Sequence record: OM386653.1
Strand: one strand, 5' to 3'
Length of the DNA: 64,000 nucleotides
DNA from: Escherichia phage vB_EcoM_ESCO8
Below, piece after piece: positions 54,474 to 54,588 of the stretch. The notes below the pieces were generated by a model. That model saw only the letters and a program-made list of their open reading frames with translations, was not told the DNA's origin and did not search any database. Each line of letters starts with the position of its first letter. Position 1 is the first letter of the stretch. Position numbers and translations under genes: made by a program.

Positions 54474-54491
54474 ATAATTTTACCTCTTAAT

Positions 54492-54518
54492 GTGATAAGA
54501 AACATTCTCCCTTATCAC
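54492..54518 (-). promoter_or_regulatory. 8-bp perfect inverted repeat (TGATAAG...CTTATCA) between the -10 and the RBS of gene 53763-54473
   Basis: gtgataag (54492-54499) and cttatcac (54511-54518) are reverse complements; could be an operator or a 5'-UTR hairpin. Confidence 0.35.
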
Positions 54519-54520
54519 TC

Positions 54521-54550
54521 ATTTTATCACGAAAAACAACTCTTTGTCAA
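54521..54550 (-). promoter_or_regulatory. sigma70-like promoter (TTGACA-18-TAAAAT) internal to the structural operon
   Basis: Minus-strand -35 at 54550-54545 and -10 at 54526-54521. Confidence 0.5.
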
Positions 54551-54562
54551 GACAAATAAAAA

Positions 54563-54583
54563 GCCCCGCCGAAGCGAGGCTTT
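54563..54583. terminator. hairpin with one mismatch (gccccgc-CGAA-gcgaggc) flanked by A5 and T3 downstream of the tape measure gene
   Basis: Imperfect inverted repeat between the TMP stop and the internal promoter. Confidence 0.4.
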
Positions 54584-54588
54584 ATGCA

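Follow-up and report, generated by a model that had tools for sequence, protein, structure and literature searches.

A putative stop-and-restart transcription junction between the tape-measure and baseplate genes of a phi92-like phage

The 115-nt gap and its elements

The DNA analyzed here, termed the window, is a 64,000-nt stretch from Escherichia phage vB_EcoM_ESCO8 (OM386653.1). It represents a phi92-like myovirus (Justusliebigvirus, Stephanstirmvirinae), and its structural genes occupy the minus strand between about 32390 and the right end of the window. Positions 54474–54588 constitute the exact 115-nt gap between the tape-measure gene and the homologue of phi92 gp135. Downstream of the gp135 homologue are gp136 and the genes for the gp27-like baseplate hub, the spike and the gp25-like wedge, to about 50461. 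A 1.5-kb query around the gap matched 55 phage records with 90–99% identity; the best match was Escherichia phage Paula (99.3%), and phi92 itself displays 98.4% identity. In the direction of transcription, the gap and its flanks contain the following elements:

54589–56568, minus strand: tape-measure protein gene, homologue of phi92 gp134, 659 aa (open reading frame list; PHROG phrog_16051 'tail length tape measure protein', E = 0; same annotation in Paula and phi92)
54591–54589, minus strand: stop codon TAA of the tape-measure gene (sequence)
54551–54583, minus strand: intrinsic terminator with a 10-bp stem, a UUCG loop (54583–54560) and a U-rich tail UUAUUUGUC (terminator scan)
54545–54550, minus strand: -35 hexamer TTGACA, 6/6 (promoter scan)
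54521–54529, minus strand: extended -10 TGaTAAAAT, with TG at -15/-14 (54529–54528) and the hexamer TAAAAT at 54526–54521, 5/6 (sequence and scan)
54512–54515, minus strand: predicted transcription start at the usual 6–9 nt from the -10, most likely A 54513 (eighth nucleotide after the -10, preceded by T)
54492–54518, minus strand: perfect 8-bp inverted repeat GTGATAAG (54518–54511)-N11-CTTATCAC (54499–54492) (sequence)
54483–54488, minus strand: Shine-Dalgarno sequence AAGAGG, 9 nt before the ATG (sequence; a ribosome-binding site is annotated here in phi92)
54473, minus strand: ATG of the gp135 homologue (sequence)
53763–54473, minus strand: phi92 gp135 homologue, 236 aa, first gene of the baseplate block (open reading frame list, PHROG, and annotation of Paula and phi92)

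An initial annotation of this DNA had described a terminator-like hairpin, a promoter and a perfect 8-bp repeat ahead of the ribosome-binding site, and all of these are present on the minus strand. The terminator is a GC-rich stem-loop with an immediate U-tract, and begins 5 nt past the TAA stop codon. Its hairpin, AAAGCCTCGC-TTCG-GCGGGGCTTT at 54583–54560, has a folding energy of -16.3 kcal/mol and is followed by TTATTTGTC, with five U residues among the first six nucleotides of the tail. The same terminator is annotated in Paula (terminator_034), and terminators are annotated at the homologous site in phAPEC8, Schickermooser and phiTE; in one IMG/VR contig the T-run of the tail is shorter. 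At the level of nucleotide sequence it is not distinctive. A scan of viral contigs for CCTCGCTTCGGCGGGGYTTTT, which is a generic terminator sequence, returned at least 120 unrelated loci, with no tape-measure junction among the matches listed, and an Rfam search of 54200–54900 gave only sub-threshold matches, attributable to the terminator hairpin. Several further terminator-like hairpins of the structural block, which follow the capsid, sheath, tube and fibre genes, lack a downstream promoter. The tape-measure/gp135 junction therefore appears to be the main restart point within the window.

The putative promoter has an 18-nt spacer between its two hexamers, matches 11 of 12 consensus positions and is the top match in a scan of 47–64 kb. 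It combines TTGACA with TG and a TAnnnT hexamer in a non-coding position, on the same strand as the gene that it faces, and its -10 is 47 nt from the ATG of the gp135 homologue. Ten matches of at least 11/12 are found in the window, versus 2.9 +/- 1.8 in dinucleotide shuffles, and two of these have the TG, versus 0.22 in the shuffles. The chance expectation of such a promoter on one strand of the 115-nt gap is roughly 2e-4. Neither a promoter nor the repeat is annotated at the gap in the records inspected (Paula, phi92 and PHB05). The extended (TGn) type of the -10 had been missed by the initial annotation. Extended -10 promoters work with unmodified sigma-70, and a weak -35 or a non-optimal spacer is tolerated. 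The promoter in the gap has the TG at -15/-14 and the TAnnnT hexamer in common with the E. coli promoters of this type, and it is unusual only in the consistently long 18-bp spacer together with a perfect -35.

Conservation of the putative junction promoter

The tape-measure/gp135 junction was read in 14 sequences of about ten lineages, comprising Stephanstirmvirinae, Vequintavirinae and one Aeromonas phage. The promoter elements are:

Window (phi92-like): -35 TTGACA; spacer 18; extended -10 TGATAAAAT
Citrobacter phage Tr1: -35 TTGACA; spacer 18; extended -10 TGATAAAAT
ukendt (Phapecoctavirus): -35 TTGACA; spacer 18; extended -10 TGTTACAAT
phiWec179: -35 TTGACA; spacer 18; extended -10 TGGTATCAT
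Klebsiella lineage (three sequences): -35 TTGACA; spacer 18; extended -10 TG(C/T)TATCAT
APECc02 (rV5-like): -35 TTGTAA; spacer 17; extended -10 TGATACAAT
Seunavirus (two sequences): -35 3/6; spacer 17; extended -10 TGATAAAAT
Certrevirus (two sequences): -35 3/6; spacer 16; extended -10 TGCTAAAAT
Serratia ChuuTotoro: -35 3/6; spacer 16; extended -10 TGATAAAAT
Aeromonas Plateaulakevirus: -35 TTGAAT; spacer 17; extended -10 TGATAAGAT

The pattern TGnTAnnAT is found at the junction in 14/14 sequences. All seven Stephanstirmvirinae sequences have TTGACA, the TG and the 18-bp distance fixed, while their spacer sequences are unrelated, and this argues for selection on the promoter rather than for shared ancestry. 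The order of a terminator followed by TGnTAnnAT is seen in Justusliebigvirus, Tr1, Phapecoctavirus, the rV5-like APECc02, Seunavirus, Certrevirus, ChuuTotoro and the Aeromonas Plateaulakevirus; the Klebsiella lineage has the promoter but not the terminator. In phiWec179, an oppositely oriented gene is upstream of the gp135 homologue, and a different TTGACA-18-TGgTATCAT takes the place of the -35 and spacer, with the leader kept from the -10 onward. This junction represents a natural promoter swap. In more distant relatives, where the gap is absent or only about 50 nt long, a promoter was not found at the junction.

These comparisons bear on the question of whether the promoter match could be a coincidence, with the baseplate genes expressed only by read-through from upstream and the hairpin at 54583–54560 serving to attenuate transcription or to stabilize the upstream mRNA. 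Such an arrangement would agree with the promoterless hairpins after the capsid, sheath and tube genes and with the distant relatives that do without a promoter, and no transcript or start-site mapping for Justusliebigvirus, Vequintavirinae, phAPEC8 or phi92 was found in the literature searched. Nevertheless, it can be given very little credence. The chance expectation is low, the -35, the spacing and the extended -10 have been kept in about ten lineages even though the sequence around them has turned over completely, and phiWec179 has exchanged one such promoter for another. The host-type promoter that the initial annotation had placed behind the terminator, facing the next gene, is thus present and, on this comparative evidence, very likely functional.

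Within the genus, the 115-nt gap is identical in 48 of 55 genomes and the other seven have a one-base difference. Five of these seven were read: four are changed at 54586, beside the stop codon, and one (phage inny) is changed in the hairpin loop. The gap has two variable sites in 115 nt versus 19 in 360 nt and 18 in 324 nt of the flanks. The invariant tract also covers about 80 nt of the tape-measure gene and 56 nt of the gp135 homologue, and therefore the lack of variation in the gap is no more than modest evidence of constraint.

A terminator (t049) and a putative late promoter (P048) were predicted at the homologous gap of phage rV5 (Kropinski et al. 2013, Virol J 10:76, Table S4). These authors described sigma-70-like promoters across the whole rV5 genome, 11 of them with extended -10 regions. 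They also found a 'late' MEME motif, TggTAaAAtA, that precedes late genes and in their view resembles the T4 late promoter, but homologues of T4 gp33, gp45 and gp55 were not found in rV5 (Kropinski et al. 2013). The motif is essentially the extended -10 of the gap promoter. In both phages the gap is between the tape-measure gene and the next tail gene, and has a GC-rich terminator with a promoter prediction within about 40 nt; the rV5-like APECc02 has TTGTAA-17-TGaTACAAT at the homologous place. The differences are that P048 was aligned by its authors on a different, weaker motif, GTGTTGTAAAAACG, and called 'late', and that in the rV5-like phages the -35 is poor, the spacer is 17 bp long and the GTGATAAG repeat is missing, whereas in the phi92-like version the -35 is perfect and the spacer is 18 bp long. 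The terminator-then-promoter design of the junction is thus old and conserved, and a prediction of it already existed for a relative.

A fully consensus sigma-70 promoter should be active early even if it lies in a 'late' block, and a mechanism that delays it is not evident. This raises the question of whether the site belongs to a phage-specific 'late' class of the TGnTAAAAT type, which would need a phage factor or a modified host polymerase and for which the -35 match would be secondary. Late timing would then be explained. The rV5 motif and its likeness to the T4 late promoter point in the same direction, as does the finding that TGATAAAAT or TGCTAAAAT is the sole conserved part of the promoter in Seunavirus, Certrevirus and ChuuTotoro, all of which have a poor -35. 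The motif is, however, a textbook extended -10, active with unmodified sigma-70 even where the -35 is weak. In addition, the perfect TTGACA at exactly 18 bp in seven Stephanstirmvirinae sequences indicates that the -35 is apparently used, the TTGACA-18-TGn architecture is also found ahead of tRNA genes in Paula, and the rV5 authors found none of the three T4 homologues mentioned above. A separate late class is therefore considered unlikely, and the site is better regarded as a host-type sigma-70 promoter. To our knowledge, phi92-like and rV5-like phages encode no recognizable late sigma factor or RNA polymerase.

The initial annotation had also proposed a second internal promoter:

60434–60462, minus strand: second candidate promoter TTGCAA-17-TATACT, a 9/12 match in the 44-nt gap before the minor head protein gene (60003–60419)

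This candidate is present and displays a promoter-like pattern of conservation, but the match is weak and its class is not enriched: matches of 9/12 are no commoner than chance in the region (47 found versus 51 expected). The sequence ahead of it is AAAAAATAAC. In the at least seven phage sequences compared, which are ukendt, Tr1 and five distinct IMG/VR sequences (encoded protein 76–100% identical), AAAAAATAAC-TTGCA(A/T), the 17-bp spacing and TTTTTGATG-TATACT-AAAA(A)GGAGA are kept, and among the sequences inspected only 6–9 nt after the -35, in the 5′ part of the spacer, vary. The A-tract upstream of the -35 is similar to an A-rich stretch that precedes the early promoters. The predicted start would fall on the Shine-Dalgarno sequence and the leader would be about 10 nt long. 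A functional second promoter is plausible.

The inverted repeat and the predicted start site

The inverted repeat can be considered at both the DNA and the RNA level. The sense RNA of the repeat forms an 11-bp hairpin, GUGAUAAGGGA-GAAUG-UUUCUUAUCAC, in which the 8-bp stem is extended via G.U, G.U and A-U pairs. It has a folding energy of -12.3 kcal/mol and a z score of -3.8 to -4.6, and none of 200 shuffled sequences was as stable. The antisense strand folds with -8.2 kcal/mol, and the sense strand is favored because of the G.U pairs. The hairpin ends 3 nt before the Shine-Dalgarno sequence. A perfect 8-bp repeat with a spacer of 3–20 nt arises in 2.5% of shuffles of the 115-nt gap, which is suggestive but not compelling, and there are 56 8-bp repeats in the whole window. 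The extension of the repeat to 11 pairs in RNA had been missed by the initial annotation.

The initial annotation had suggested a search for the palindrome elsewhere in the genome. In approximately 146 kb (the window plus the rest of Paula), the palindrome is unique even with one mismatch per arm allowed, apart from two loose matches of different spacing, one of which is inside an open reading frame of the window. In the genus members read, the arms are without substitution and the sole change in the repeat is in the loop (54504 T>G in phage inny). Tr1 has the GTGAT discriminator in common with the window, but lacks the right arm and has a GGGG/CCCC stem instead. The Phapecoctavirus leader contains an unrelated 7–8 bp hairpin, GGAAGAT/ATCTTCC, at +3/+4, of which anhysbys has a natural variant with the closing pair U-A changed to U.G. 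The Vequintavirinae leaders are short and without hairpins. RNAalifold applied to the leaders of five lineages did not find a shared structure (covariation term +0.92). Metagenome contigs scanned for TGATAAAATRAGTGATA, which covers repeat variants, gave at least 120 chance matches, and none had TTGACA upstream among the matches listed.

Late-region promoters elsewhere in the genome have unrelated repeats, e.g. CAAATATCC/GGATATTTG and CTACCCC/GGGGTAG; the latter follows the portal promoter, and a long terminator-like hairpin encloses the gp121 promoter. About 10 of the 22 promoters inspected have a repeat of at least 8 bp that overlaps their core or leader, versus about one expected by chance (a rough estimate). 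A TATCACA motif near other promoters follows no consistent pattern. Several other candidates were considered by eye and rejected. The GTGATAA repeats are poor matches to Fur, DnaA or PhoB boxes; TGATAAG lacks the T at -7 of a sigma-70-dependent promoter-proximal pause element; cruciform extrusion driven by supercoiling would need longer arms and a shorter loop; and a plus-strand terminator would have just eight AU-rich pairs.

The position of the transcription start is important in assessing the repeat. About 18 other promoter-gene units, taken from Paula DNA outside the window and from the plus strand of the window at 11584, have a -10 followed by 7 nt, an A or G, and a GC-rich leader hairpin that begins at +3 to +5 with z <= -3.3; the combination of a promoter and a leader hairpin is thus a recurring theme in this genome. 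A 54513 is in the same register as these A or G residues, and this supports its choice as the start. An A(T/A)GGG start is found in the same register in Tr1 and Phapecoctavirus, and this register aligns the initial transcribed sequences AAGGGAGAAT (window), ATGGGGAGAT (Tr1) and ATGGGAAGAT (Phapecoctavirus). Taking A 54513 as +1 places the left arm of the repeat at -5 to +3. The predicted start therefore lies within the stem, which sets the hairpin in the gap apart from the leader hairpins elsewhere in the genome, whose first bases are at +3 to +5. RNA from this start would have only a 6-bp stem of -3.7 kcal/mol (z about 0), no better than shuffles, and the full hairpin would be formed only on RNA that reads through the terminator.

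The initial annotation had offered two functions for the repeat, a repressor site and a 5′-UTR stability hairpin. As an operator, GTGATAAG-N11-CTTATCAC, from about -5 to +22, would bind a dimeric phage or host repressor and keep the consensus promoter silent until late. The perfect 8-bp dyad does overlap the start site, and its center near +9, a position that depends on the predicted start, is typical of a repressor that blocks initiation. The extended -10 contains a third GTGATAA copy, 12 bp upstream, the arms do not vary within the genus, where the one change seen is in the spacer, and a consensus sigma-70 promoter in a late block needs some delay. In its dyad symmetry, centered near +9, the repeat is similar to lac O1-type operators; it differs in being a single site, in its 19-bp half-site spacing and in not being conserved together with the promoter. 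One copy per genome of approximately 146 kb argues against a regulon, and the unrelated repeats at other late promoters argue against a common operator. Tr1, Phapecoctavirus and Vequintavirinae all keep the promoter but lack the repeat, and have a different hairpin or none. Half-site centers 19 bp apart are awkward for a simple dimer, and the three additional G.U and A-U pairs make sense only as sense-strand RNA. The repressor-site proposal thus fares poorly, and a DNA operator here is rather improbable.

The stability-hairpin proposal fares better in part. The hairpin is strong and favored on the sense strand, but the predicted start in the left arm would leave the promoter-derived RNA with the weak 6-bp stem. 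Overall, the evidence weighs against a repressor operator and mildly favors a lineage-specific RNA hairpin, which the repeat probably is.

A further consideration is whether the repeat has a function of its own at all. It may be a chance or by-product palindrome of an AT-rich leader, e.g. one in which the right arm happens to complement the discriminator GTGAT, with only the terminator, promoter and Shine-Dalgarno sequence of importance. The frequency of such repeats in shuffles and in the window is in keeping with this, and the GTGAT discriminator is present in Tr1 without the right arm. In addition, the repeat is not conserved in any sister lineage, the full stem is impossible on promoter-derived RNA, and the invariance within the genus extends over the adjacent coding ends. 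On the other hand, hairpin stability is outside the range of the shuffles, repeats of this length are found at far more promoters than the roughly estimated chance number, and the only change among the genus members read spares the arms. A repeat without function is possible, although somewhat doubtful, and a lineage-specific RNA hairpin is preferred.

Proposed role of the junction and comparison with known systems

Taken together, the sequence comparisons make it likely that the gap is a stop-and-restart junction, with a terminator, a host sigma-70 promoter for the baseplate block, and a repeat that acts as RNA. Most RNA of the sheath, tube, chaperone and tape-measure genes would end at the strong intrinsic terminator. 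Nine bases past the terminator, host sigma-70 would restart transcription near A 54513 and give rise to RNA of the baseplate genes from the gp135 homologue onward. The two gene modules could then be expressed at different levels. Segmented expression of the structural block, as suggested in the initial annotation, is a reasonable reading given the terminator and the very likely functional promoter. The repeat would most likely act at the RNA level rather than as DNA bound by a protein. Read-through RNA would have a stable 11-bp hairpin just upstream of the ribosome-binding site, and promoter-initiated RNA would have only the inner 6 bp, at its very 5′ end. The role of the hairpin is probably local and lineage-specific; it may contribute to mRNA stability or keep the ribosome-binding site free of the pyrimidine-rich right arm.

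Perhaps the two transcripts constitute a switch between isoforms, in which the read-through mRNA, with the full 11-bp hairpin by the Shine-Dalgarno sequence, and the promoter-derived mRNA without it differ in stability, translation or binding of a phage protein (a translational operator). In a related form of this proposal, repeats that straddle the start would delay otherwise constitutive consensus sigma-70 promoters in the structural block; repeats of a similar kind are seen at the gp121 and tk promoters of Paula and in the Klebsiella lineage. Both proposals are speculative, and a switch of this kind appears quite improbable.

The stop-and-restart junction does not change current understanding. 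However, a conserved host-type promoter at the tape-measure/baseplate boundary provides a concrete place to distinguish host sigma-70 transcription with levels set by terminators from transcription by delayed promoters. The terminator-promoter unit is also well defined for annotation or engineering of BASEL-type phages. The terminator is already annotated in relatives; the promoter and repeat in phi92-like phages are not annotated in the records inspected, and are ordinary kinds of element.

Stem-loops at the 5′ end are known to stabilize mRNA, e.g. in the ompA leader, and a hairpin together with a Shine-Dalgarno sequence can constitute a translational operator, e.g. that of T4 gene 43. The repeat in the gap resembles these systems in having a stable hairpin near the 5′ end that ends 3 nt before the Shine-Dalgarno sequence. 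It differs from them in that the predicted start is inside the left arm, such that the full stem would be present only on read-through RNA.

At the level of the whole unit, there is a parallel with the PeSL cassettes of T4-like phages, where a terminator or stem-loop and a sigma-70-type promoter are found between genes (Arbiol et al. 2010; Comeau et al. 2014, PMC4122927). The gap is also a small intergenic unit of a stem-loop/terminator and a sigma-70-type promoter. PeSLs, however, are multi-copy, similar in sequence, early, and located in hyperplastic regions, whereas the gap unit is single-copy and in a conserved structural block; as a single-copy unit of the core block it was rejected as a PeSL member. 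The gap unit also has no sequence in common with the repeated early cassettes of the phage itself, in which the layout is a promoter and then a hairpin. A further likeness is seen in phiWec179, where the rearrangement breaks exactly at the promoter and recalls PeSL-mediated module exchange.

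Variants of the gp135 junction

At the corresponding junction of the Klebsiella-infecting Stephanstirmvirinae (L005 1383-1436, L016 and L034), the tape-measure gene has no terminator after it. The entire promoter is flanked in all three by an 11-bp repeat, TGTACATCAGT/ACTGATGTACA. The repeat is invariant and stays unchanged while the promoter spacer differs from phage to phage. The mRNA here may be leaderless, because the annotated ATG lies within the right arm of the repeat, 5 nt past the -10, and is without an SD.

In phiWec179 (L162, LC739533.1 1445-2317), a gene in opposite orientation adjoins the gp135 homologue on its upstream side. 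The breakpoint of this rearrangement falls exactly at the gp135-homologue promoter: an unrelated TTGACA-18-TGgTATCAT is found in place of the -35 and spacer, and the leader is kept from the -10 on. The Phapecoctavirus-type phage anhysbys (L163) displays one A>G change in the leader hairpin of its gp135 homologue, which converts the closing U-A pair to U.G and preserves pairing; a second change is found farther downstream in the leader.

Four GenBank records named 'Campylobacter phage', with Campylobacter jejuni as the listed host (MG065639, MG065645, MG065656 and MG065689), match this coliphage at 98.4% identity across 1.5 kb; in the gap ahead of the gp135 homologue they are identical to it. 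Probably the records carry a wrong host name, or else the isolates had been contaminated.

Other signals in the window and in Paula

The window has additional features:
49003-49032, minus strand: candidate internal promoter TTGACT-18-TGgTACAAT, a 10/12 match with an extended -10
57366-57385 and 57901-57918: hairpins resembling terminators, following the genes for tube and sheath
42761-43006, minus strand: 81-aa open reading frame with hydrophobic stretches, in what seems a 412-nt gap separating two large genes of the tail-fibre region

The first lies within the coding sequence of the 958-aa fibre gene (47585-50461), on the sense strand, and may be an internal promoter or a chance match. The hairpin at 57366-57385 is possibly a bidirectional terminator, since it scores as a terminator on both strands; the annotation of Paula also has terminators on both strands there. 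The 81-aa open reading frame directly follows a terminator-like hairpin.

Further promoters, both in the Paula stretch L012, lie within repeats that extend across the -10 or the start site:
~1290-1345, minus strand: promoter upstream of the phi92 gp121 homologue, with a hairpin that encloses the -10 TAGACT
25424, plus strand: tk promoter, with the repeat CGCTCCCA/TGGGAGCG spanning -7 to +12

The gp121-homologue hairpin is ~18 bp, including G.U pairs, and is followed by TTTTTAT; terminator and promoter appear to overlap at this site.

Promoter classes and early cassettes

Four minus-strand promoters ahead of the Paula tRNA cluster (L012 8017, 9316, 9456 and 9998) share with the gp135 promoter the architecture TTGACA-17/18-TGnTAnAnT. 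The spacer is 18 bp in three of the four; early-cassette promoters have 16-17 bp. The tRNA-cluster and gp135-type promoters may constitute a distinct class.

An early cassette occurs in more than a dozen copies, in Paula (L011 ~29,600-38,800, minus strand) and in the window:
11584-11660, plus strand: early promoter-hairpin cassette

Its layout begins with an A-rich stretch (AAAAAATA), followed by the promoter TTGACA-16/17-TAnnnT, ~7 nt and an A; next come a conserved GC hairpin, either GGGCGGGAAATGGTTTCCCGCC or a variant of it, then an SD and a short open reading frame. Z-scores of the leader hairpins are approximately -3.5 to -4.8. The early cassettes resemble in type the PeSL regulatory cassettes of T4-like phages, composites of a stem-loop and a sigma-70-type promoter, but differ from these in that they run from promoter to hairpin.
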